Part shown: piece by piece, positions 2,315-17,150 of the stretch
Numbering within the stretch: the first letter of the stretch is position 1
Layout of the letters: each line of letters opens with the position of its first letter
Source: Longimicrobiales bacterium
Lineage (GTDB): Bacteria; Gemmatimonadota; Gemmatimonadetes; Longimicrobiales; Gaopeijiaceae
Assembly (NCBI GenBank): GCA_965203485.1
Contig: OZ241892.1
Location: 2,656,001 to 2,720,000, forward strand
Direction of reading: 5' to 3'
Length of the DNA stretch: 64,000 bases
The notes under the pieces: generated by a model
The model's input: only the letters and a program-made list of their open reading frames with translations
What the model was told of the DNA's origin: nothing
The model's database searches: none
Translations under genes and position numbers: made by a program

Positions 2315-3931
2315 ATGAGCGTGCCGGCCAAGGTCCCATCCTCCGCCGCCACGACCGGCTACGAGGCCGAGCTGTGGAAGATGGCGGACGCGCTTCGCGG
2401 CTCCATGGACGCCGCCGAGTACAAGCACGTCGTCCTGGGGCTGATCTTCCTCAAGTACGTCTCCGACGCCTTCGAGGAAATGCACGCGAAGCTCGGCGAG
2501 GACGAGCACGCCGACCCGGAGGACCCGGACGAGTACCTGGCCGAGAGCATCTTCTGGGTGCCGCCCGAGGCCCGCTGGGGGCGGCTCAAGGCCGCCGCCA
2601 AGCAACCCGGAATCGGCCGGCTCGTGGACGACTCGATGACCGCCGTCGAGCGCGACAACCCCATGCTGAAGGACGTCCTGCCGAAGGACTACGCCCGCCA
2701 GTCCCTCGACCAGACGCGCCTGGGCCAGCTCATCGACATGGTGAGCAACATCAAGGTCGGCGACGAGGCCGCCCGCTCGAAGGACGTGCTCGGCAGGGTC
2801 TACGAGTATTTCCTGTCGCGCTTCGCGGACGCCGAAGGCAAGCGGGGCGGCGAGTTCTACACCCCCCGTTGCGTCGTCAAGCTGCTGGTCGAGATGATCG
2901 AACCGTTCAAGGGGCGCGTCTACGACCCGTGCTGCGGCTCGTCGGGCATGTTCGTGCAGTCGCTGGAGTTCATCCGGGCGCACCGAAAGCCCAACGGCGG
3001 CGGAGACGCGGCGCCCGGCGGCGACGGCCTGCCGTCGACTGCCCCGGACCCCATCTCCGTCTACGGCCAAGAGTCCAACTACACGACCTGGCGCCTCGCC
3101 AAGATGAACCTCGCCATCCGCGGAATCGAAGGCCAGATCGCCCACGGAGACACCTTCCACAACGACCGCCACCCCGCCCTCAAGGCCGACTACATCCTCG
3201 CCAACCCGCCCTTCAACGTGAGCGACTGGGGCGCGGAGCGGCTGAAGGACGACCAGCGCTGGCGCTTCGGCACGCCGCCCAAGGGCAACGCCAACTTTGC
3301 CTGGGTCCAGCACATGGTGCACCACCTGTCGCCCACCGGAGTCGCCGGCTTCGTGCTGGCCAACGGCTCGATGAGCTCCCGCCAAAAGGCCGAGGCCGCC
3401 GTCCGCCAAGGGCTGGTGGACGCCGAGATGCTGGACTGCATGGTCGCCCTGCCCACGCAACTCTTCTACTCGACCCAGATACCCGCCTGCCTGTGGTTCT
3501 TGGCCCGCGACCGAAGCAACGGCCCGTACCGCGACCGCCGAGGCCAAGTCCTCTTCGTCGACGCCCGCCAGCTGGGGCGCATGGTGGATCGCACCCACCG
3601 CGAGCTCACCGACGAGGACGTGTCCCGAATCGCCGGCACCTATCACGCTTGGCGCAGCCCCGAGGCCGCCGACGCCTACCAGGACGTCCCCGGCTTCTGC
3701 AAGAGCGCCCCGCTGGAAGAGATCCGCCGCTACGACTACGTGCTCACGCCCGGCCGCTACGTCGGCGTCGAGCCCCAGGAAGAAGACGACGAACCCTTCG
3801 AGGACAAGATGCGACGTCTCGCGGCCGAGTGGCGCGAGCAGGTGGCGGAGGCGCGGCGGCTGGACGCGAAGATCGAAGCGAACTTGAGGTCCCTCGGCTT
3901 TCCGCCTCCGGAAGACCGCCCATCGGAATGA
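2315..3931 (+). CDS. hsdM: Type I restriction-modification methyltransferase subunit M
   Basis: [19 protein letters not shown]-terminus, GEFYTP, motif I DPCCGSSG, motif IV ANPPF. Confidence 0.95.
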
Positions 3932-4344
3932 TCGACTACGGCAAGTTCCGCCTCTCGCTGGAGCGGCTCCAAGAGCAGTACGAAAACTACAGCCAGCCCG
4001 ACCTTTCGTTGCCCGAGGTCACGCGCGAGGCCGTCGCCGAGTCGGTCGTCCACCGCTTCGAGACGTGCTACGACTCCCTGTGGAAGGCCCTCAAGCGGTA
4101 CTTGGCGGAAGAGCTGGGCGTCGCCGACCTTCCCAACAGCCCCAAGCCGATCTTCCGACTTGCCTCCGAGAACCACCTGTTTGACAGCCCTCTGGAGCGT
4201 TGGCTAGGATATGCCGAACACCGCGTGGGCACGGCCCACGACTACAGCCTGTCGAAGGCCGAGGACTGCTTGGCGGCGACGGGCGACTTCATCGTGGACG
4301 CCACCGCGCTTTACGAGACGATGACCGGGGAACGATGGAAATGA
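3928..4344 (+). CDS. HEPN-domain protein (HI0074-like nucleotidyltransferase substrate-binding family), putative RNase toxin
   Basis: [14 protein letters not shown]...[20 protein letters not shown]...SPKPIFR; RX4HXY motif [12 protein letters not shown] overlaps with both neighbours. Confidence 0.85.
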
Positions 4345-5876
4345 AGGGCGAGATCGATCTGACGGAGGAGCAGCGGCAACTGGTGGTAGGGTTGATCAAA
4401 CGGCACCTGCCCGACACGGATGTGTGGGCTTATGGGTCGAGGGTGACGTGGACTGCGCGGCCCGGGTCTGACTTGGACTTGGTTGTGTTTTCCGATACTG
4501 ACCACAGTCGTGAGGTGTCCGACTTTCGGGAGGCATTGGACGACAGCAACTTGCCGTTTCGCGTAGATGTGTCGGTTTGGGGCGAATTGCCGGAGTCGTT
4601 TCGACAAGAAATTGACCAGGCACACTTTCCTGTTGTCGAGGACACGTCCCACGTGATGCATCTGACTTTCGGCGAGTGTGCGACATTGGTACGTGACACC
4701 GTTGATCCCGAGGATATGCCTAGCGATATGCCATACGTCGGTCTCGGCCATATCCCCCGCAACGGTCTTGCCATAATCAATCCTGGCGTAGCAAGTGACG
4801 TGACGAGTGCGAAGACTCGTTTCCGACGCGGTGATATATTGTTTGGACGACTACGGCCATATTTCCGTAAGGTGGCACGTGCTCAGTACGATGGCATATG
4901 TTCGACGGACATTTGGGTAGTGCGCGCTCGTTCAGGTATAGAACAAGAATACTTATTCTACCAGATGGCTCACCGCCAATTTGTTGATTATGCTTCCTCT
5001 GCCTCCGAGGGCACAAGAATGCCGAGAGCAAAATGGGATCACGTCGCGCAATATAATATTGCTCTTCCATGCATAAGCATCCAACAGCGTATCGCTCATC
5101 TTCTTCGTACCATGGACGAGAAGATCAATCTGATTCAGAGAAAAATGGGAACTCTTGATTCGATACTCCGCACTGTTTTTTATGGTTGGTTCGTGACCTA
5201 TGATCCGGTTTATGCCAAGGCAGAGGGCCGAGATGCAAAACTACCGGCGACGATTGCCGATGCTTTTGTCGATTCCACAACTACTTCGTCACTAGGATCC
5301 ATACCATCTGGATGGACAGTGAAATCGTTAGGTGACCTTCTCACACTCGCCTACGGCAGAGCACTCCCTTCTCGGAACAGACGGCACAATGGAAGCATAC
5401 CAGTTTATGGTTCAAATGGTCAAATCGGATGGCATGACACGGCACTTGTCGACGGACCCGGCATCGTAGTTGGGCGAAAAGGAACACCAGGTACGGTCAA
5501 TTGGATTTCCACCGATTTCTTTCCCATAGATACAGCATATTATGTTGTACCAAGACATCATTGCATTTCTTTGTTTTTTTTGTTTTTTGCATTACAAGAT
5601 CAACGTCTTTCCTTGCTCGTCGCCGATTCCGCTGTACCCGGATTGAATCGTGATATTGCGTATGCTCAACAACAAGTTTTTCCCACTGCTCGTGTTCTTA
5701 GGCTTTTCGACGAATGTGTGAAGCCATTCTTTGCCACCATTGGACACTTGACAGACGAACGCCAACTCATCATTTCGGTACGCAATCTTCTGCTGGATCA
5801 GTTTATGAGTCGTGGGAATGCGAATCATCAATCAAGCCATAACACCGGATCGCCCGTGAGTCCAGAACCTGTGTGA
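4341..5876 (+). CDS. hsdS: Fusion of a minimal nucleotidyltransferase (MNT) with a type I R-M specificity subunit
   Basis: The first ~100 aa carry GSX10DXD (GSRVTWTARPGSDLD) and LPFRVDV. Two TRDs and a conserved region follow (GDILFGRLRPYFRK, QQRIAHLLRTMDEKI, SSLGSIPSGW, IVVGRKGT). One continuous reading frame. Confidence 0.88.
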   Translation: MKGEIDLTEEQRQLVVGLIKRHLPDTDVWAYGSRVTWTARPGSDLDLVVFSDTDHSREVSDFREALDDSNLPFRVDVSVWGELPESFRQEIDQAHFPVVEDTSHVMHLTFGECATLVRDTVDPEDMPSDMPYVGLGHIPRNGLAIINPGVASDVTSAKTRFRRGDILFGRLRPYFRKVARAQYDGICSTDIWVVRARSGIEQEYLFYQMAHRQFVDYASSASEGTRMPRAKWDHVAQYNIALPCISIQQRIAHLLRTMDEKINLIQRKMGTLDSILRTVFYGWFVTYDPVYAKAEGRDAKLPATIADAFVDSTTTSSLGSIPSGWTVKSLGDLLTLAYGRALPSRNRRHNGSIPVYGSNGQIGWHDTALVDGPGIVVGRKGTPGTVNWISTDFFPIDTAYYVVPRHHCISLFFLFFALQDQRLSLLVADSAVPGLNRDIAYAQQQVFPTARVLRLFDECVKPFFATIGHLTDERQLIISVRNLLLDQFMSRGNANHQSSHNTGSPVSPEPV

Positions 5877-5923
5877 TCAGATGGTCGCAAGAACCGCTTG
5901 TCGTTCCACCATGAAGGCTCCAG

Positions 5924-6075
5924 TTAGAACTTGAAGAGGGGCAGGAGCGGACGGTCCCGGACCCGCACCCTCCAAAACGCCATGTCCACCAGCCGGACCA
6001 TCTCGCGCTCCGCGTCCGCGAACTCCGTGCGTACTGGATCGAGAGTGTCGAAGTCGAGGTCGCCCCCCCAGTCGC
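5924..6075 (-). pseudogene. Fragmentary duplicate of the 5' part of the neighbouring Rpn gene
   Basis: GDWGGDLDFDTLDPVRTEFADAEREMVRLVDMAFWRVRVRDRP closely matches GDWVDALDFRTLEPAPTEFVDAERETVRLVDMAWRVRFRDRP encoded at ~6895-7020. Confidence 0.75.
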
Positions 6076-6148
6076 CGCTCCACGGCCTCTTGCCGACTGG
6101 GGTGTCCAGCAACACCAAGTAGTCTGAGCCAGCCTCGCCGTCCGTTCG

Positions 6149-7129
6149 CTAGTCGCCACCCGCCTTGGCGATCAGCTCCTCGCCCGTCTCGCACTCCGCC
6201 AACAGCCGCCCCAACCGCGCCAGCCGAGAGCGGTCCGTCACGCCGGCAAGCATGTCGGCCAGCCGCTCCGCCGCATCCGCGCCGAACTTCCACTTCGCCG
6301 TCTCCACGTACGCCCGAGCCTCCCCGAGCGTCTGGGCCTCCTGCGCCACTTTCGAGATGTGGTTCGCGTACACCTTGGTTGCCTCCTTCAGCGTGTCCAA
6401 CTGTCCGATTGTCTCCTCCGACCCCTTCCAATCTATCATCTGAACGCGAATCCACGCGACGTACGCCTCCCGCAACGCCGACGTGACCAAGCGCTCCTCC
6501 AGAACCGCCAACGCTTGCGCGACCCGTTCTGGGTCCCGCTCGAAGCGTAGCGCCAAGCCTGCACGCAGGCGGCCCGCCTTGCGCAGATCGAGAGACGCGC
6601 CCTTCGCCGCTTCCGCCTCCTCGTCCAGCAGCACCACTCGCTGGCCGTACACGAACGGCCTCAGTTCTTCGGGCGCGAGCTTCTCTAGCTCGCACGCCTT
6701 GCTCAGCGGCCCCCTCCACCTGCCCTCGAAGCTCTTGACCACCACAAACAACACCGCGCTCGCTTCCACGTCGGCCCCGGCACGCCGGCCTTCAGCCAAG
6801 CTCTGGTAGCACAGCGCCGTCTCGAGCAACGCGCGGGTCGCCATCCTCTTGTCCGCCTTCGACTGGAACTCGAACAGGAGCACGAGCCAGAGCGGGCGGT
6901 CCCGGAACCGCACCCTCCACGCCATGTCCACCAGCCGGACCGTCTCGCGCTCCGCGTCCACGAACTCCGTCGGCGCCGGCTCGAGGGTTCTGAAGTCGAG
7001 CGCGTCCACCCAGTCGCCGCCCACGGACTCGCCGACGATCTCGACGACGACTTCCTCCACAACCTCCGCGAACGAGTAGAACTGCTTGTACACTCGGTCC
7101 TTCTCGCCGTGCTTCGGCTGGTCGGGCAT
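6149..7129 (-). CDS. Rpn family recombination-promoting nuclease / PD-(D/E)XK putative transposase
   Basis: DRVYKQFYS, LDFRTLE..PTEFV, DMAWRV, LLFEFQSKADKRMATR; C-terminal KFG...AERL helical tail. Confidence 0.85.
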   Translation of the reverse strand: MPDQPKHGEKDRVYKQFYSFAEVVEEVVVEIVGESVGGDWVDALDFRTLEPAPTEFVDAERETVRLVDMAWRVRFRDRPLWLVLLFEFQSKADKRMATRALLETALCYQSLAEGRRAGADVEASAVLFVVVKSFEGRWRGPLSKACELEKLAPEELRPFVYGQRVVLLDEEAEAAKGASLDLRKAGRLRAGLALRFERDPERVAQALAVLEERLVTSALREAYVAWIRVQMIDWKGSEETIGQLDTLKEATKVYANHISKVAQEAQTLGEARAYVETAKWKFGADAAERLADMLAGVTDRSRLARLGRLLAECETGEELIAKAGGD

Positions 7130-7409
7130 GAGCAGCCCCTCCGTTCCTGGCCGAGTGCGGGTTCGCTGTTGCGTCTGGAACTGGACGCCGGGAGGCCCGC
7201 CCGGAACGTCCGGGAGGCACGGCAGGCGGGTGCGTCCCTGAGAAGATGGGGCCGCAGAACGGGCGTTTGGATGGCTGGATCGGCCACGCGTGAAATTGGC
7301 TTGCGGGCTGGAAGGCCCCGCCGCCCTGCTTGCCGCGTCCTTGACTCGCGGCCATCTTGCGGAATCCAGGCAGTTCGGCCTCTTCGCGCCACACGTGGTG
7401 GCTCTTCCG

Positions 7410-10400
7410 GTGTCTCGCATCCTCGAATCCGCAGTTGAGCAGGCCGCGCTCGAGTGGCTCAGCCAATCCGGCTGGACGACCGCGCACGGCCCCGACCTCG
7501 GCGCGGACAGCCCCGCCGGCCGGGCGTCCGAGCGGTCAGCCTACTCCGACGTCACCCTCGCCTCCCGCCTCCGCAAGGCCCTCTCGCGCCTCAATCCCGA
7601 TCTCCCCGGCACCACTCTCGACGACGCCCTCCGCAAGCTGACCCGCCCCGCCGGCTCCACCCTCGACGCCCGCAACCGCTCCTTCCACCGAATGCTGGTG
7701 GACGGCGTCCCCGTCGAGTACCGGACGCCCGACGGAAGCATCCGCGGCGCCAACCCCCGAGTCCTCGACTTCGACCAGACCGACGCCAACGACTGGCTGG
7801 CCGTCAACCAGTTCACCGTCGTCGAGGGCAAGCGCACGCGCCGCCTGGACGTCGTGCTGTTCGTCAACGGGCTCCCGCTGGGCGTGGTGGAGCTCAAGGA
7901 CCCGAGCAACCCGGACGCCACCATCCACACCGCATGGCGGCAGCTTCAGACCTACAAGGCGGAGTTGCCCACGCTCTTCGCCATGAACGAGATCATGGGC
8001 GTCTCGGACGGCGTGGATGCCCGGTTCGGCACGCTCACCGGCGGCTGGGAGTGGTTCAAGCCGTGGCGCACCATCGACGGCGACGAGAGGGCGGGAGCGT
8101 CGGCGTCCCAGCTGCAGGTCGCCGTCGAGGGGCTGTGCGCGCCGCGACGGTTGCTCGACATGATCCGCGACTTCATCGTCTTCGAGGACGACGGCGGAGG
8201 CGAGCTGGCCAAGAAGATGGCGGGCTACCACCAGTACCACGCGGTGCGGGTGGCCGTGGGCCAGACCCTGCGGGCGACCCGGATGCAGGACGAGAAGGAA
8301 GCCGCTCCGGTTCGGCCCTTCCGGCCGGTCGTCGTCCCGCCGGACCCGCGAACCCGGTACGTCACCACTGCGCCGCTGGTCCCGCTCAAGGCCGCGGCTG
8401 GCGCGTTCGGCGATCCGCGGCGCTTCCCGGCGGACGACTTCGAGTGGACCAGGATTCGCCCGAAACGCCCGCTGCGGCGCGGGATGTTCGTCGCCCAGGT
8501 CGTCGGCCCATCGATGGAACCGGCGATACCCGACGGCGCCTGGTGCCTCTTCTCCGCGCCGGTCGAAGGCACGCGCCAGGGCAAGACCGTGCTCGTGGAG
8601 CTTCGCGACGAGATCGATCCCGAGACCGGCGAGCGCTACACCGTCAAGCGGTACGAGAGCGAGAAGGCCGCCCAGAACGAAGACGGCGACCGCTGGCGCC
8701 ACGCCCGCGTCACCCTCAAGCCCCGCAATCCGCGCTTCCAGCCCATCGTGCTCGCGCCCCAGGACGAAGGCCAAGTACACGTCGTCGCCGAACTGGTGGA
8801 GGTGCTGGACCGCCACGCTCTCGACACCGGTCCGAAGCCCGCGCTACCGGGCGACCGCCGCGTCGGCGTGGTGTGGCACACGCAGGGCTCCGGCAAGAGC
8901 CTCACGATGGCGTTCTACGCGGGGCGCATCGTTCGCGAGCCGGCCATGGCGAACCCCACGCTGGTGGTCCTCACCGACCGCAACGACCTGGACGAGCAAC
9001 TCTTCGCCACGTTCTCCCGTTGCCGGGACCTGTTGCGCCAGCCGCCCGAGCAAGCCGAGGACCGGGCCGACTTGCGCCGGCGGCTGGACCGCGAAGCGGG
9101 CGGCGTCGTCTTCACCACGATCCAGAAGTTCTTCCCGGATCAGAAGGGCGATCGGCATCCGTTGCTGTCGGCGCGGCGCAATATCGTGGTCGTCGCCGAC
9201 GAGGCCCACCGCAGCCAGTACGACTTCGTCGACGGCTTCGCCGCTCACATGCGCGACGCCCTGCCCGCCGCCTCGTTCATCGGCTTCACCGGCACGCCCA
9301 TCGAGCACACGGACCGCAACACGCGCAGCGTCTTCGGCGACCACATCAGCATCTACGACATCCAGCGCGCGGTGGACGACGGCGCCACGGTGCCGATCCA
9401 CTACGAGGGCCGGCTGGCCAAGCTCGCGCTGGACGAAGACGAGCGGCCCCGGATCGATTCGCAGTTCGAGGAAGCCACGGAGGGCGAGGAGGTCGCCCGC
9501 AAAGAAGGACTGAAGACGCGCTGGGCGCAACTGGAGGCGATAGTCGGGGCCGACAAGCGCCTGGAGTTGGTGGCCGGCGACTTGGTGCGCCACTACGAGC
9601 AGCGGTGCGACGCGCTGGAAGGCAAGGCGATGATCGTGTGCATGAGCCGCCGCATCTGCGTGGCCCTGCACGACAAGATCGTGTCGAAGCGCTCCGGCTG
9701 GCACGGCGAAGAAGACGAGCAGGGCGCGATCAAGGTCGTCATGACCGGCTCGGCCTCCGATCCGCCGGAGTGGCAACGCCACATCCGCAGCAAGGGACAA
9801 AGGGAGGCGCTCGCCAAGCGGTTCCGAGACCCGGACGACCCGTTTCGAATCGTGATCGTGCGCGACATGTGGCTGACCGGCTTCGACGCGCCGGCGCTGC
9901 ACACCATGTACGTGGACAAGCCCATGCGCGGCCACGGCTTGATGCAGGCCATCGCCCGCGTGAACCGTGTCTTCCGCGACAAGCCGGGCGGGCTGGTCGT
10001 GGACTATCTGGGACTGGCGAACGACCTGAAGGAGGCTCTGACCACCTACACGAACAGCGGCGGCAGGGGCAGGCCCACCGTCGACCAGGACCAAGCCGTG
10101 CAGGAGATGCGCAAGCGCTTCGAGATATGCCGCGATCTCTTCCACGGCTTCGACCGGTCGCGCTGGACCGCCGGCGCCCCCGCCGAGCGCTTGGCGCTGT
10201 TGCCCGCCGCGCAAGAGCACGTCCTGGCCCAGGAGAACGGCAAGGACCGGTTGCTCGAAGCCGTGGACGCCCTGTCCAAGGCGTTCGCGCTCGCCGTCCC
10301 CCACGACGAAGCCCTCGGCATCCGAGACGACGTGGGCTTCTTCCAGACCGTGCGCAACTCCCTGGCCAAGCGGGCGCCCGGCGCCGCCCAGCCCGCCGAG

Positions 10401-11063
10401 GAACTCGACCACGCCGTGCGGCAGATCATCGCCGGAGCCGTCGTGCCCAAGGGCGTGATCGACATCTTCGCGGCCGCCGGACTGCCGAAGCCCGACATCT
10501 CCATCCTGTCCGACGAGTTCCTGGCCGAAGTGCGGGACCTGCCGCAACGCAACCTGGCCGTCGACCTGCTGCGCAAGCTTCTGGACGGCGAAGTGCGCGC
10601 CCGCCGCCGCAAGAATGTGGTGCAGAGCCGCTCCTTCGCCGAGATGTTGGAGCGCACGCTGGCCCGCTACAGGAACCGAGCCGTCGAGACCGCCCAGGTG
10701 ATCGAGGAGCTGATCGGCTTGGCGAAGGAGATGCGCGAGGCCGACCGCCGCGGCGAAGACCTTGGCCTGTCCGAGGACGAGCTCGCGTTCTACGACGCGC
10801 TGGAGACCAACGACAGCGCCGTCAAAGTGCTCGGCGACGAGACATTGCGCACAATCGCTCGCGAGCTGGTCGCGACCGTGCGCAACAACACCACGATCGA
10901 CTGGACGATCCGCGACAACATCCGCGCCCGCCTCCGCGTCTACGTCAAAAAGGTCCTCCGCAAGCACGGCTACCCGCCCGACAAGGAGGAGGCGGCAACC
11001 AAGACGGTCTTGCAACAGGCCGAGGTGTTCTCGGCGGACTGGCTGGCCTCGGCGCCACGGTGA
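7410..11063 (+). CDS. hsdR: Type I restriction endonuclease subunit R with an inserted S24 (LexA-like) peptidase domain
   Basis: Nuclease motif [19 protein letters not shown], Walker [34 protein letters not shown]-terminal [13 protein letters not shown]. Probable GTG start at 7410 (ORF is open from 7290). Confidence 0.93.
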
Positions 11064-11357: not shown

Positions 11358-11864
11358 ATGAGCATGAAGCTAAAGAAGCTACTGTCCCAGTTTCGCCTAG
11401 AGGGTGTGCGTCTCAACGTCAAGTTCGCCACCTTCGACGTCGACCTGACAGACCACGACAAGAACGCGGCGTGGGATCTGTACGTAGAGATGTTGACCAG
11501 GATCGCCACCCAGCCGCTCCCCACCATCCATGGCAGTGAGGATCAAGCTTTGGCGAGCGTCTACTCTCTGTTTCCTACTACCCGCGAAATCCTCCGACGT
11601 CGAGGTCCCAGCACTATTGAATTCTCCAAAATCGCGATCCCTGTACTCAATCAAGTTGTACGTCCATTTACGGCCAAATGGCATCGCGAATCACTGGTGG
11701 GCGCATTTGACGACCCCGCCCGCTGTATCGAATTTCGTCAAGAACTCGCGTCACTGCAGGTTCATCTAAGGAACTACAATCGCCTGTTGGCGAGCATTGC
11801 CGATGTAGAAGACCTTACTGACCCAGAACCTCATGACCAAACAATGGGAGAAAACCATGGCTGA
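11358..11864 (+). CDS. Hypothetical helical protein, first gene of the TIR operon
   Basis: Globular-looking ORF ([18 protein letters not shown]...VRPFTAKWH) that overlaps the TIR start. Confidence 0.7.
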
Positions 11865-12336
11865 CAAACTGCACAATGTCTTCATTAGTCACAAGCATGA
11901 AGACGACGCTGGCCTACAGTCGCTCAAGGCCCTGCTTGAACGGCACGGCATGAAATACAGGGATTATTCCGTGACATCTGACAAGCCTAATCGCGCCGTT
12001 AGTGAAGATTACATAAAATCCAGCATCCTTGCGCCTAGAATCCAACGCGCTAGCTGTTTAGTCGTATACGTGTCGGCAGCGACCAAGAACAGTGACTGGG
12101 TAGATTGGGAAATCGAATATGCCCACGGAAAGGGGAAGCGAATAGTCGGCGTTTGGCAACGCGGAGAACTGGGTTGTGATGTACCTCGTGCTTTGACTCT
12201 ATACGCTGACGCAGTGGTGGGATGGAATGGCGAAAGCATAGTTGATGCCATTACTGGCAAGTCCAACACGTGGTACAACCAGAATGGGACCTCATGGGAG
12301 TACCGGTCAGACATCCAACGACACACTTGCGGTTAG
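11857..12336 (+). CDS. TIR domain protein (ThsB/DUF1863-like)
   Basis: HNVFISHKHED, ILAPRIQRASCLVVYV, SDWVDWEIEYA (catalytic Glu), GKRIVGV; GGGAG RBS. Confidence 0.88.
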   Translation: MADKLHNVFISHKHEDDAGLQSLKALLERHGMKYRDYSVTSDKPNRAVSEDYIKSSILAPRIQRASCLVVYVSAATKNSDWVDWEIEYAHGKGKRIVGVWQRGELGCDVPRALTLYADAVVGWNGESIVDAITGKSNTWYNQNGTSWEYRSDIQRHTCG

Positions 12337-12834
12337 GAGGACAGTTCATGTTTCTCTATTCGTACATCGTCGCCAGGGACTATGGCTTCGCCCCTAATCC
12401 CTTCTTTGGCTGCTGTACCCTTGCTACGTGCAAGCCCGTAATTCGCCGATGTGCTAGCGTCGGCGATTGGGTCGTTGGCACTGGGCCCAAGAAGAAGCAA
12501 AGGAACGGTTACCTGGTTTTCGCTATGCGGATTGATGACGCAATGTCGTACAACAAGTATTGGTCTGATCCCCGCTTTGCGGCCAAAAAGCCGAACATGC
12601 GATCTAGCGTTCGGAATGCATATGGCGACAATATCTATCGCACAGACGATGCAGGAGGCTGGATACAGCAAGATTCACACCATAGTATGCCACATGGCAA
12701 ATCTTGTGGAGTTGCCCCGGTATGGTGGACGGGCAAGGATCTTGGGTTCAGATGGTGCAATGTGAAACATGACTTTAGGAAGGACGGAGGCGCAAGGGCG
12801 CCGAACGGTCTCGTGTCGAGGGGGTCGGTGCACT

Positions 12835-13683
12835 TTACGCGACCGCACGCTTGCGCTCGAAGCCGGCGGGGGATTCGTAGCCGAGCGCCGAGTGTCGGCG
12901 CCGCGAGTTGTAGAAGCCTTCGATGAAGGCGAAGACGGCGCGCCGGGCTTCGGCCGGACTTGTGAACTGGCAACGGTCCAGCAACTCGCATTCCAACGTG
13001 GCGAAGAAGCTCTCGCACATCGCGTTGTCGTAGGCGTCGCCCACCGAGCCCGTCGAGCGACGCACGCCGGCCTTCCTGCACCGCTCGCCGAACGCCCAGG
13101 ACGTGTACTGCGACCCCTGGTCCGAGTGATGGATCACGGTCTCTGGACTGCGGTTCTCGACGGCCATGGCGAGCGCGCGCTCGACGAGTTCGCCGCGCAG
13201 GTGCGTCTCCATGGCCCAGCCGACGACGCGGCGGCTCCAGGCGTCGACGACGACCGCCAGGTAGAGCCATCCGGCCCCGGCCGGCACGTACGTGATGTCG
13301 GCGACCCAGAGCTGGTCGGGGCCTTCGGCGCTGAAGTCGCGCTCGACCAAGTCCGGAGCCGGGCGCGCGTGGGCGTCGCGCACCGTCAGCGCCACCTTGC
13401 GGCGCCTGCGGCTCGCGCCTTCGATGCCCTCCTCGCGCATGAGGCGGGCGACGCGCTTCGGACCGACGCGCTCGCCCCAGGCCGCGAGATCGGCGTGGAT
13501 GCGCGGTCGCCCGTACGTCCGCCGGCTCGCTTCCCAGCTGCGGCGCACCAAGACGCGCAACGCGTCGTCGCGCAACGCGCTCGCCGATCGGGGACGCTTC
13601 AGCCATGCATAGAAGCCGCTCGGGGAGAGACCGAGGACGCGGCACATCGCGCGCACGGGAAACACGGCCCGGTGCGCTTTCAC
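12835..13683 (-). CDS. IS3 transposase OrfB (DDE/rve)
   Basis: YGRPRI, LWVADITYV, HHSDQGSQYTS, DNAMCESFFATLECE, YNSRRRHSALGY. Confidence 0.93.
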   Translation of the reverse strand: MKAHRAVFPVRAMCRVLGLSPSGFYAWLKRPRSASALRDDALRVLVRRSWEASRRTYGRPRIHADLAAWGERVGPKRVARLMREEGIEGASRRRRKVALTVRDAHARPAPDLVERDFSAEGPDQLWVADITYVPAGAGWLYLAVVVDAWSRRVVGWAMETHLRGELVERALAMAVENRSPETVIHHSDQGSQYTSWAFGERCRKAGVRRSTGSVGDAYDNAMCESFFATLECELLDRCQFTSPAEARRAVFAFIEGFYNSRRRHSALGYESPAGFERKRAVA

Positions 13684-13994
13684 GAACTCGAACCCTCTCC
13701 GGGAATCGAGCCGCTCTCCCGAGCGAACCAGGCCGCGGCTTTTTTTAGAATGTCGCGCTCGAGGCGCAACTGCTTGTTCTCCCGCTTCAGGCGGCGCAAC
13801 TCGTCCCGCTCGCGCGTCGTCGTCCCGTCGTCGCGACGGCCCTCGTCGAGATCGGCCTGCTCGACCCAGTTGCGGATCGTCGGCGCCGACGGCTCGAACT
13901 CACGCGCCAGCGCCTCCGGCGACCGGCCCGAACGCGCCAGATCCACCATTCGCCGCCGGTACTCCAGCGGGTACTGCTTGCGTTTCTTCGGCAT
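13680..13994 (-). CDS. IS3 transposase OrfA (HTH)
   Basis: MPKKRKQYPLEYRR...ELRRLKRENKQLRLERDILKKAAAWFA; A7G -1 frameshift motif at 13739-13746. Confidence 0.9.
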   Translation of the reverse strand: MPKKRKQYPLEYRRRMVDLARSGRSPEALAREFEPSAPTIRNWVEQADLDEGRRDDGTTTRERDELRRLKRENKQLRLERDILKKAAAWFARESGSIPGEGSSS

Positions 13995-14287
13995 CGTGGA
14001 CTCCTCCTCGTCCCGAAAGATTGAACGTGTCCACCATGCCGGGGCAACTCCACTTGTGACGCCAACATCCACAACGACACCAAGACTGACAGAGTGTTGA
14101 TTAGTTGGTACTTCACCTACTGGGGTGGAACCGGGCCCGAAATACCGTATGCAAGCCGGACGGACATTTGCTCTCGCGGTCGATCCCATAAGAAGATCCT
14201 TCTCCGAGATATACAAACAACCGTCGCTTGGCTTAAGGATTTGAAGCGAGGCTATTGTGGTGAACCCCTGGAATGGGCAGCTATGTG

Positions 14288-15391
14288 ATGTTGGCTGCGA
14301 TGTCTTTTTCACTGGAAACTCTGTCGCTGTACGCAAGAACGACCGCCGAAACCGATCGCCTTCCTCCAAGCGACATCCAACCGGTTCTTTTTGGTCTGTA
14401 TGGAGAGGTTGGCGGCATCATGACGTTGATCAAGAAATGCCACCGTGAGGAAGTTGATATGGACAGAGCGATTCTACGAGAGGAGCTTGGCGACGTACTG
14501 TGGTACTTCGTTACGCTATGCCGTCGATTGGGCGTTTCCCTCACTGATGTTGTAGTCAGTACCTACAGCAAACCTGATGTGAAACCGATCCAAGAAAACA
14601 TGATGGGGATTGACCAGCTTCGTCCGCTATCAAGAACGGTGGAAAGACTAGGGGTTAGGGCGGCAATGCTGCTGTCCGTTACGAACTCGGATGCGTCAGT
14701 TGCGGAGGGGTTGCGTGGATTTTGGCAGGACTTTTGGCAGTGCCTTGCCGCCGCTCGGGTGGATATTGGAATAGTAATTGCCGAAAACATTGCAAAAATT
14801 CGTGGCAGATTCACGATTCCGACGTCTACCGAACTCCCTACTTTCGACGACACATATCCCGAGGGTGAGAAATTGCCGATGTCGTTCCGAATTGAATTTA
14901 TTGAAACCCACGAAGGGGCCATTACCCTTCGATGGAACGGGAACATTCTCGGGGACGAACTCGACGATAGTATAATGCGGTCCGACGATTATCGCTTTCA
15001 CGATGTGTTTCATCTTGCGAATGCCGCTGTTCTTCATTGGTCTCCGACATTTCGGAAACTAACGGGACGAAAGCGCAGAAGTAATCCTTCTGTTGATCGA
15101 GGACAAGATGGCGGTCGAGCAATCGCAATTGAGGAAGGCCTGACAGCATGGATGTTTGCCTATGCAAAGGAGCGTGCGTTTCTCGAGGGAAGCAGACGTC
15201 TTCCATTTGACCTACTGAAGGGAGTCAGTCGATTTGTAACCGGCTATGAGGTGCATGCATGTCCGCTGGGCCTGTGGGAACAGGGAATTCTAGAGGGCTT
15301 CAAGGCGTTTCGTGCTTTGGCGAACAACCGAGGTGGCGTGGTTGTAGGAGAGCGAGCTGATCGCATGATCGGTTATGAGTGTCGGTCATGA
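14288..15391 (+). CDS. MazG-like nucleotide pyrophosphohydrolase with a MazG_C domain
   Basis: GLYGEVGG...REELGDVLWY (MazG) and DDYRFHDVFH (DxYRxHDxxH), HWSP, AIAIEEG; TGATG overlap with the Nmad2 stop. Confidence 0.85.
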   Translation: MLAAMSFSLETLSLYARTTAETDRLPPSDIQPVLFGLYGEVGGIMTLIKKCHREEVDMDRAILREELGDVLWYFVTLCRRLGVSLTDVVVSTYSKPDVKPIQENMMGIDQLRPLSRTVERLGVRAAMLLSVTNSDASVAEGLRGFWQDFWQCLAAARVDIGIVIAENIAKIRGRFTIPTSTELPTFDDTYPEGEKLPMSFRIEFIETHEGAITLRWNGNILGDELDDSIMRSDDYRFHDVFHLANAAVLHWSPTFRKLTGRKRRSNPSVDRGQDGGRAIAIEEGLTAWMFAYAKERAFLEGSRRLPFDLLKGVSRFVTGYEVHACPLGLWEQGILEGFKAFRALANNRGGVVVGERADRMIGYECRS

Positions 15392-16026
15392 CAGCCGACG
15401 CGTTTGTCGACATGCTCACCGACCAAAGGTTTCGCAATGCATTTGATCCGTACTCTCAACGATGCACTGCCCACGACTTGGCTGACGCCCCGGAAATGAG
15501 ATGCCGGATGGTGCTGTCAATGATTGGTAACGCCGTCGAGCACGGAACCGATTCGTTGTGGGTCGGGAGAGACCTCGGATATCGTGGCGGGCGCCGTACG
15601 GGCCTTGCGATGACTGACGACTTTAGCCTTCAGGTCCACGCACGCCGATGGAGCATAGTCGGCGAGCGGCCGACCAGAGGAACGATGATCAAAGAGCGCA
15701 CAGCAACGGCGGTTTGGAACCTGCTCGGGAAGATCGAAATTAGCGTGTTTTTGTGGAATGTGTTTCCATTTCATCCGCATATACACGACACTCCGTTTTC
15801 GAATCGACCACATAATAGAACGGAGAGACAGGTCGGCCGGAAAATACTTGGTGAGCTGATTCGTATGTTGAGGCCTAGGCGGATAGTTGCTGTCGGTGGA
15901 CTGGCGGCGAGCGTGATTGGGGCTATGACAAATGGCGAACAATGTGTTCGTGTACGTCACCCGAGCTATGGCGGTCAAAGAGAGTTTGTCGAGGGAATGC
16001 TGGGTGTCTACGGGAATCGAGGGTAA
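15388..16026 (+). CDS. Uracil-DNA glycosylase superfamily protein
   Basis: LWVGRDLGYRGGRRTGLAMTD, ERTATAVW, LWNVFPFHPH, NRPH, VRHPSYGG; ATGA overlap with MazG. Confidence 0.85.
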   Translation: MTADAFVDMLTDQRFRNAFDPYSQRCTAHDLADAPEMRCRMVLSMIGNAVEHGTDSLWVGRDLGYRGGRRTGLAMTDDFSLQVHARRWSIVGERPTRGTMIKERTATAVWNLLGKIEISVFLWNVFPFHPHIHDTPFSNRPHNRTERQVGRKILGELIRMLRPRRIVAVGGLAASVIGAMTNGEQCVRVRHPSYGGQREFVEGMLGVYGNRG

Positions 16027-16310: not shown

Positions 16311-17150
16311 TCAGCCACGTCGTGCGCGCCGCAGGTGGTCGCGTGCAACGCGCTCGGGTATGTGGAGCTTCATCAAGGCGGCCACCCTGTCGTCCTCGCT
16401 CGCGTCAGGCATCTCGTCCAGTATCTCCCGCGCCCGGCACGCTCGCCATGACCAGATGGCGCCGTCAACAGTCTTGCGGTTCAGCCCATTGGCTTCCGCG
16501 ATGGCGCGGATCTCCTTCGGCGGGTGTCTGCCCTCATCGCACAGGTCCCAGATAATGCGAGTCTTGGCCGTCTTCTTTGCGGGTCGCTTCGGCACCCGCC
16601 TCTTGTCGTCCCGATTCGGCGGAGGCTGCAACGTCGGCGCCGACGCTAGCTTGTTCAGCCGACGTTCCCACCATGTGGCATCGAACTCGTACACCGGAAG
16701 CTTGACTTCGCGCACTCCGAATCTGTTCTCGATCATCGTGTCCGCGATGTCGTTGCCGTCGTACAGCTTGACTTCAATCCGAGCCTCCTGTGCCTTGTCC
16801 GCCGCTTCCCGCGCCTGCCGCGTGTAGCCGCTGGACGTGAAGAAGTAGCCGCTGGTGAGCCCGCGACTGGTCAGTGCGCCCACGAAGTTGACGACCTCCT
16901 TCGGCGGCACGTCTCGGTCCCACCGCTTCGCCTGGAACGCGAACCGGAAGTCGAGCATGTTGCCGATCCCATCGATGCCGCCGTCGCCCGCGCCACCGGT
17001 CCGCTCCACGCGACTTGCTCCCCTGAGCGTCAGAAGCTGGACCACGAACTCCTCGAACTCCTGGCCCGACATCTTGCGAAGCCATCCGTGGATCGCGTTC
17101 CGCGCCGACTCAATCGGATCGTGGAGAACACTTCCGTTCTGGTACGCCAC
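16311..17150 (-). CDS. Mrr-like (type IV) restriction endonuclease domain protein
   Basis: MSGQEFEEFVVQLL, TGGAGDGGIDG, FQAKRW, GYFFTSSGYTRQA, LYDG; extra basic/helical C-terminus. Confidence 0.85.
   Translation of the reverse strand: MAYQNGSVLHDPIESARNAIHGWLRKMSGQEFEEFVVQLLTLRGASRVERTGGAGDGGIDGIGNMLDFRFAFQAKRWDRDVPPKEVVNFVGALTSRGLTSGYFFTSSGYTRQAREAADKAQEARIEVKLYDGNDIADTMIENRFGVREVKLPVYEFDATWWERRLNKLASAPTLQPPPNRDDKRRVPKRPAKKTAKTRIIWDLCDEGRHPPKEIRAIAEANGLNRKTVDGAIWSWRACRAREILDEMPDASEDDRVAALMKLHIPERVARDHLRRARRG

Follow-up and report, generated by a model that had tools for sequence, protein, structure and literature searches.

How restriction enzymes tell the damaged, undermethylated chromosome of their own cell from the DNA of an invader is understood only in part; in the case of EcoKI, ClpXP responds to an indirect recognition signal. 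A stretch of 64,000 nucleotides from a Longimicrobiales bacterium (GenBank assembly GCA_965203485.1, contig OZ241892.1, positions 2,656,001 to 2,720,000 of the forward strand; referred to here as the window) raises this question anew, since the restriction subunit (HsdR) of its type I restriction-modification system carries an in-frame insert resembling the self-cleaving domain of LexA. What is this insert, and what would it do to the enzyme that bears it? As judged from sequence and predicted fold, the module is a complete, conserved and selected LexA-type autoprotease domain within an intact type I HsdR, autoproteolysis itself being predicted. By analogy with LexA, we think it probable that self-cleavage stimulated by RecA on single-stranded DNA (RecA-ssDNA) switches restriction off and exposes an ssrA-like end, LKAAA, for ClpXP. 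If a restriction subunit carried a damage-sensing protease of its own, the problem would have a direct solution, testable by one residue.

An S24 domain in an intact HsdR

HsdR is encoded by a single open frame (7290/7410-11063, forward strand). Counted from the GTG at 7410, as are all residue numbers below, it comprises 1217 residues; the GTG at 7290 would yield 1257, and the start at 7410 agrees with the lengths of homologues. Its main features are as follows.

7410..11063, forward: hsdR, 1217 residues with the in-frame S24 insert (PADLOC REase_I, Pfam, TIGR00348)
7422..8051, forward: HSDR_N nuclease domain (Pfam, E 5.5e-42), with D147, E161, K163, Q178 and Y182 intact
8226..8234, forward: YHQ (Q-motif), start of the motor, which cleavage at Ala330-Gly331 would leave on the N-terminal fragment
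8310..8807, forward: LexA/cI-type S24 autoprotease module, residues about 301-466 (Pfam PF00717, model and fold matches)
8877..8900, forward: Walker A (HTQGSGKS)
9198..9209, forward: DEAH (Walker B)
10056..11033, forward: HindI-like HsdR C-terminal region (Pfam T1RH-like_C, E 2.4e-132)

The hsdR profile TIGR00348 scores 566.7 bits against a cut-off of 284.55, its match falling in two stretches, and Pfam recognizes HSDR_N (5-214), Peptidase_S24 (357-461), SWI2_SNF2/ResIII, T1R_D3-like and T1RH-like_C. The nuclease is of the PD-(D/E)xK type with a QxxxY motif, and its five motif residues are invariant in a 57-row alignment of HsdRs with the same internal insert, as are the motor motifs. The latter (Q, Walker A, DEAH and the later motifs of superfamily 2, SF2) are all present in the window HsdR, for which the closest solved structure is EcoR124I HsdR (E 5e-33). 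This agrees with a preliminary description of the DNA, which had regarded the HsdR as otherwise complete and had placed an in-frame insert between YHQ and Walker A; the size of ~150 residues and the start at 8361 given there need correction, as the net insert measures about 160-170 residues and starts near 8310. Misassembly as its source was ruled out by independent contigs crossing both junctions: a contig from another sample covers 8206-9222 with zero differences, and contigs of another study span each insert junction. Two of the four sequencing runs compared are sponge metagenomes.

Within the insert, Pfam Peptidase_S24 (PF00717, residues 357-461) reaches 24.8 bits with the whole protein and 30.5 bits with the insert alone, above the curated cut-off of 23.3. 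An AlphaFold model of the insert, calculated from a 98-row alignment, has a predicted local distance difference test score (pLDDT) of 88.8. LexA, lambda cI and UmuD account for all 21 Foldseek hits listed at E<=0.001 (probability 1.0 to the LexA fold), and the top ten rows of VIA-align are LexA, cI, UmuD and 186-cI, the best being Thermotoga maritima LexA with a Z of 11.4 and a root mean square deviation of 2.7 over 118 residues. The structural alignments to LexA begin at the cleavage-site region. When the insert was aligned to the host's own LexA with hhalign (probability 91.7), the G-x-S-M and T-V-K motifs were in register. A sequence search of the insert against the PDB returned nothing but a chance aquaporin match, so that the kinship is visible by fold search. 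The LexA/S24 identity suggested earlier was thus confirmed by both profile and structure prediction. A model of 900 residues of HsdR is poor (pLDDT 62.9, predicted template modelling score 0.39) and depicts the insert as a separate beta domain (mostly pLDDT 70-82) with low-confidence linkers on either side. No helix-turn-helix (HTH) family was found in the Pfam scan of the window HsdR; by profile, fold and catalytic residues, the insert is an S24 member and not a repressor. An intein-like splicing element was also considered and ruled out, as no such Pfam family or fold occurs in the insert.

Predicted catalytic and RecA-contact residues

Conservation was followed in two sets. Residues 270-490, used as the query of a homologue search, matched 1787 of 7163 candidates, and the best 120 matches, which were listed, make up a set of 121 proteins together with the window HsdR; among representatives at 50% identity, with 1776 hits in all, 147 further ones were analysed, 109 of them covering the domain. 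The residues concerned are the following.

8385..8402, forward: L-K-A-A-A/G, predicted scissile Ala330-Gly331, with a candidate ssrA-like LKAAA end on the N-fragment
8487..8489, forward: Phe360, equivalent in position to LexA F111 (RecA L2 loop pocket), 121/121, in the register of the host LexA alignment
8508..8513, forward: Pro367 (rare, strain-specific) and catalytic Ser368 (Ser 121/121)
8607..8648, forward: acidic loop with D400, D403 and E405; Tyr410 (LexA V153/UmuD F94 position); catalytic Lys413
8721..8738, forward: P-x-N-x-x-F "Omega" element of LexA-family peptidases (PMC12984324), with P438, N440 and F443

The preliminary description had located Ala330 (8397-8399), Gly331 (8400-8402), Ser368 (8511-8513) and Lys413 (8646-8648), and its motifs and coordinates proved exact. 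The Leu of LKAAA, A329, A330, G331, F333, F360, G366, S368, M369, D403, T411 and K413 are invariant in 121/121, so that its expectation of conserved Ala-Gly, Ser and Lys was borne out there, and all of these are kept together in 97/109 of the more distant complete representatives; the remaining 12 deviate at one or another of them. The cut site reads Ala-Thr or Ala-Ser, Ser and Lys being retained, in L012, P0168, P0172, P0246 and P0263, and Cys-Gly in P0192 and P0255. The Omega element is likewise retained (P 117, N 120, F/Y 121 of the 121 proteins).

LexA receives the L2 loop of RecA in a pocket made up of F111, L113 and V153, beside an acidic patch ahead of K156 (PMC9926225). In a sequence-level comparison, the corresponding F360, Y410 and D400/D403/E405 are conserved here, the counts among the 121 proteins being 118 for D400 and 121 each for D403, E/D405 and Y/F410; the L113 position is occupied by Ala362.

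Insertion site and spread

Between YHQ and Walker A lie 217 residues in the window HsdR and 204-217 in six insert-bearing loci, as opposed to 28-65 in insert-less relatives and 48-56 in the closest of these; the insertion point is a naturally length-variable loop. The comparison came from an exact-pattern genome scan of 80 loci, in which 3/80 have the module and the rest are mostly insert-less HsdRs. Among the best 120 of the 1787 matches, 61 are HsdRs with the same internal insert and three are HsdRs that bear the module at their tail, whereas in 56 proteins it follows Type_ISP_C. The architecture, of which the preliminary description had known no characterized example, is therefore not unique.

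The median ratio of nonsynonymous to synonymous substitution (Nei-Gojobori, 15 genes, including one duplicate pair and one frameshifted gene) is 0.146 for the insert, 0.198 for the nuclease and 0.114 for the motor, indicating that the insert is under purifying selection on par with the catalytic domains. On an HsdR tree calculated with the insert left out, carriers fall inside one subfamily, mixed with insert-less genes (P0114, a long branch from another family, is unreliably placed). On a tree of the S24 domains, a quick one with many weak branches, the 62 internal inserts need 2 changes, while the 12 passenger groups together need 25 label changes; this is compatible with a single origin of the internal inserts, though not proof of it. 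The module was found in 11/201 genomes of the order (one weak) and 10/401 of the phylum, and broken carriers exist (L015, L104). Viral contigs contain three module loci, in two of which the module ends what look like type III Res-like proteins; they give no sign that the module is a phage element.

A second HsdR family and other defence proteins

An EcoAI-like HsdR from a genome of the same class (L223:1513-4128) carries an S24 module, 46% identical to that of the window, near its N-terminus. This family, with proteins of about 906-915 residues, spans at least 120 clusters (P0270-P0389), and coverage of the first 290 residues is 96-100% in each of the 120 homologues listed. Ser and Lys are kept in 120/120, Ala-Gly plus both in 113/120, and the nuclease D-E-K in 119/120. 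The 40 residues ahead of the insert keep an invariant E, R, W and E, which in 11 insert-less EcoAI-like relatives lead straight on to the D and E-x-K motifs; for the solved HsdR 3H1T, the alignment begins at its residue 70-74, directly after the insert. The predicted cut therefore lies inside the nuclease domain, between its first helix/strand and its D, E-x-K residues, and would split that domain. Directly upstream of this hsdR lies a gene that by eye looks like a sigma-54-type activator (L223:57-1493).

Many defence enzymes carry the same portable module, and the HsdR insert is one of its placements. Of 78 representatives of at least 230 residues that were scanned, 44 have a recognizable partner domain and 34 do not. 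The partners are Type_ISP_C (9), HsdR (7), MrfA/DruE-like (5), Schlafen helicase (5), HNH (4), HTH (4), and AlbA, McrC/LlaJI, type III nuclease, PLD and N6-methyltransferase (2 each); that is, 40/44 are DNA-defence-type proteins and 4 are HTH proteins. PADLOC labels on module carriers include DruE, DrmC, DrmMI and IIG. The same S24 clade caps type ISP/IIG, type III, McrC, DruE-like, Schlafen and HNH proteins, and at most 25 residues follow the module in 169/249 proteins that reach the domain end. In three genomes of the host's own family (L013, L014, L016), it caps DruE-like helicases of about 2000 residues, not HsdR; an initial label of "DrmA-like" for these passengers was replaced on the basis of PADLOC. 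P0115, P0121, P0142 and P0143 have a conserved C-terminal domain of about 200 residues after the module, with no Pfam hit in the two that were scanned, P0142 and P0143. A third insertion site, considered for P0136 and P0223, was rejected, both being tail fusions with an internal deletion.

Genomic surroundings

Intact hsdM and hsdS genes lie upstream of hsdR in the window. Among seven other internal-insert loci with at least 5 kb upstream, 5/7 have hsdM and hsdS, one only hsdS and one neither.

2315..3931, forward: hsdM, type I N6-adenine methyltransferase, 538 residues (Pfam N6_Mtase, HsdM_N; PADLOC MTase_I, E 1e-213)
3931..4344, forward: nucleotidyltransferase (NTase) substrate-binding gene within the operon (Pfam NTase_sub_bind, E 4e-17)
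4341..5876, forward: hsdS with two specificity domains and an N-terminal minimal nucleotidyltransferase domain (Pfam Methylase_S in two stretches, NTP_transf_2/Polbeta; PADLOC Specificity_I)

At 3931-5876, the NTase substrate-binding gene is thus succeeded by an in-frame fusion of a nucleotidyltransferase domain with HsdS. We take the product of 3931..4344 to be HEPN-like, and the arrangement presumably resembles a HEPN-MNT pair absorbed into the restriction-modification operon. Between hsdS and hsdR, on the reverse strand (5803-7123), are a YhgA/Rpn-like gene (Pfam Transposase_31) and what looks like a piece of a second such gene. Downstream follow defence-island genes (11364-16026), namely a 166-residue open reading frame of no assigned family, a ThsB-like TIR gene and an Nmad2 gene, the last cut short at the start of an insertion-sequence-like element (about 12700-14100). 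The two reading frames after this element gave no PADLOC hit and are by eye presumably MazG-like and uracil-glycosylase-like. A type IV (Mrr-like) restriction gene (PADLOC mREase_IV) lies on the reverse strand at 16311-17150, and about 5 kb ahead of the window (contig 2651010-2651555) there is a second hsdR in the form of a frameshifted, broken 5' fragment, with about 73-79% identity to that of the window.

A putative RecA-triggered off-switch

In the sequence of events that we propose, the S24 domain would hang from a surface loop of the motor as a separate unit, leaving the enzyme to restrict normally. When RecA-ssDNA filaments form upon chromosome damage, at stalled forks or during recombination, the domain would dock in the filament groove and, as LexA does, cut itself at Ala330-Gly331 by means of Ser368 and Lys413. 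This would part the nuclease and the Q-motif helix (residues 1-330) from the translocase and expose LKAAA-COOH, by which ClpXP could pull off and destroy the fragment, much as with the latent degron of LexA. Restriction would then cease for the time of repair, in which unmethylated self sites appear, and the M and S subunits would go on methylating. A module at the tail would give the whole enzyme a degron after the cut; in the second HsdR family the cut alone would split the active site.

The host genome encodes recA, lexA, clpP and clpX. ARAGORN found no tmRNA in the host, but an Rfam search did, and the tag frame of this tmRNA ends in LALAA. The strongest C-terminal ClpXP tags of Escherichia coli follow [LFYW]-[LAR]-L-A-A, a terminal Ala-Ala with an upstream Leu being a strong signal (PMC10862746), and LexA-like proteins bury ClpXP C-degrons adjoining the cut (PMC5742171). 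The predicted end of the N-fragment, LKAAA, is in sequence an ssrA-like candidate ClpX degron, and Ala-Ala would stand at the new C-terminus in 121/121 top homologues and 101/109 of the more distant representatives.

The direction of the switch can be argued from anatomy owing to the two internal insertions, which tail fusions alone do not allow. Since a single cut leaves an internal S24 domain attached, relief of auto-inhibition does not work for either internal family; the cut in the second family splits the nuclease, so release of a working nuclease fails there. Inactivation works for all three placements, which favours an off-switch, the reading that fits best among them. More generally, we give slightly better than even chances to the view that the module is a portable, LexA-derived "SOS fuse", repeatedly grafted onto defence enzymes and wired to RecA filaments, whose single self-cut followed by ClpXP would disarm them during DNA damage. 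Its placements would be the two internal HsdR sites and the tails of HsdR, type ISP/IIG, type III, McrC, DISARM/Druantia-like, Schlafen and HNH proteins.

Several observations weigh against the RecA-triggered off-switch. The host LexA also has Ala-Ala at its cut (TVAAG), so that the conservation of Ala-Ala is no independent evidence for a degron; it may stem from the needs of the active site instead, and with 101/109 among the representatives and 104/120 in the EcoAI-like family, selection for a degron is not separable from active-site constraint. Both homologue sets consist of top-scoring hits, which somewhat inflates invariance. The position of LexA L113 is Ala362 in 118/121, and Ala332, the second residue past the cut, is found in 106/121, where LexA-family enzymes have a large side chain (PMC12984324); an invariant Phe follows one residue on. 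In the window copy, residue 367 is Pro, which is present in only 2/268 aligned proteins and is Gln in 11/11 other members of the 90% cluster compared over this region. The letters are identical in another sample's contig, marking Pro367 as a real allele, and its place beside the nucleophile may perhaps render cleavage poor in this copy; a role of the residue before Ser in the oxyanion hole was not found in the accessible portions of PMC10020695, PMC11787620 and PMC12984324. The 900-residue model is too poor to judge whether the domain could reach into the filament groove from a large complex. The direction is also ambiguous for DruE-like helicases and for the DrmMI-like methyltransferases (P0160, P0167), whose destruction need not mean "off" and, for the latter, could take away protection instead of restriction. 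Invaders that induce SOS could exploit such a switch. Finally, plasmid-induced alleviation of EcoKI restriction persists in a non-cleavable lexA1 strain (PMC11109961); EcoKI alleviation needs no LexA cleavage, and the ClpXP parallel drawn in the preliminary description stands as a functional analogy only.

Among other explanations, a self-cleaving off-switch with a different trigger (ssDNA itself, the enzyme's own motor in a stalled or long-lived state of translocation, or a different co-protease) appears unlikely to us. It would suit the observations that most passengers are SF2 helicase-like motors or nucleases, that the clade has an N-terminal extension of its own and a long acidic loop absent in host LexA, that a RecA-independent LexA-like protein, IrvR, has been reported (PMC7101444) and that EcoKI is targeted while translocating (PMC4231737). 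At the sequence level most RecA-contact positions are conserved, however, and the clade also resides on HTH repressors and on motor-less HNH, PLD and AlbA proteins, which argues for a trigger supplied by the cell.

Quite unlikely is an on-switch, in which cleavage would lift auto-inhibition, as in the activation of UmuD, or set free a nuclease fragment to kill the cell, infected or damaged, in an abortive defence. The mostly C-terminal position of the module, from which a cut would remove it, and the action of DruE-type effectors on ssDNA-containing intermediates (PMC13192584) speak for it. In the window HsdR, though, a single cut leaves the S24 domain attached to the motor, the cut in the EcoAI-like HsdRs falls between the first nuclease helix/strand and the D, E-x-K residues, and a degron-like Ala-Ala would terminate the liberated fragment. 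The alternative offered in the preliminary description, that an active nuclease fragment is released, is disfavoured on these grounds.

We are equally doubtful of a binding role, in which the domain would localize, sequester or pair the enzyme, through RecA filaments or as a dimer, or act in trans, with self-cleavage secondary. Dimerization of LexA and UmuD domains and cleavage in trans by UmuD (PMC9926225) are in its favour, as are the presence of two HsdR subunits in type I enzymes and deviations at the catalytic positions, both among the 109 representatives and in 1/15 internal inserts, which has Ala-Thr at the site; binding alone, however, would not require that the scissile site and both catalytic residues be kept together in the large majority. 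A neutral or selfish passenger tolerated in permissive loops, for which the length-variable site, the patchy and rare occurrence and the broken carriers might speak, is highly improbable given purifying selection equal to that on the catalytic domains, an invariant active site, repeated gain on unrelated defence proteins and the failure of Pfam and fold searches to find a second domain for mobility within the insert.

Comparison with known systems

A full-text literature search, outside which subscription papers mostly lie and beyond which architecture tables in supplements could list fusions, turned up no account of an S24 domain in any restriction or defence nuclease, in keeping with the preliminary description. 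Nor is an S24 fusion mentioned in the accessible parts of the YprA/ARMADA preprint (PMC12458937), the Dnd reappraisal (PMC10853773) and the Druantia III preprint (PMC13192584), or LexA or S24 in those of a 2025 review of restriction-modification (PMC12707154). The internal placement in HsdR and the second, EcoAI-like family are new, and we regard the arrangement as a putative, so far undescribed form of regulation in type I restriction that belongs to a broader pattern. A restriction subunit of this kind would extend S24 self-cleavage from repressors and UmuD to defence enzymes. If the view of a portable SOS fuse is true, the SOS signal would be tied to anti-phage defence by a general post-translational route, and damaged cells would be open to gene transfer for a time; if the module works as a drop-in, it would be a natural RecA-responsive degradation tag.

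LexA's and lambda cI's C-terminal domains (MEROPS S24, PF00717) share with the insert the fold, the Ala-Gly site, the Ser-Lys dyad, the P-x-N-x-x-aromatic element, conservation, in sequence, at most RecA-contact positions and an Ala-Ala that the cut would expose here. Unlike them, the insert has no DNA-binding HTH, is embedded in an enzyme and has a longer acidic loop and an N-terminal extension, with Ala in place of a large residue two past the cut and, in the window copy, Pro before Ser. UmuD (fold match Z 9.6) is likewise an S24 domain that controls an enzyme and not transcription; it is a separate subunit activated by losing its N-terminal arm, whereas the insert shares a chain with nuclease and motor and is likely inactivating.

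Proteolytic removal of HsdR is how type I systems avoid self-cutting: HsdR of types IA and IB is degraded by ClpXP and that of Pseudomonas by Lon-like proteases, while type IC uses no proteolysis (PMC4231737, PMC12707154, bioRxiv 2024.10.21.619520), and the signal for EcoKI is long-lived translocation (PMC11109961). The proteolytic loss of HsdR that protects undermethylated self DNA in EcoKI and Pseudomonas resembles what we propose here, but those HsdRs have no built-in protease. With type I HsdR in general (TIGR00348), the window protein has in common the nuclease motifs, the Q-motif, Walker A and B, and hsdM and hsdS in the locus; it differs in the about 165 extra residues that form an S24 domain in motor domain 1.

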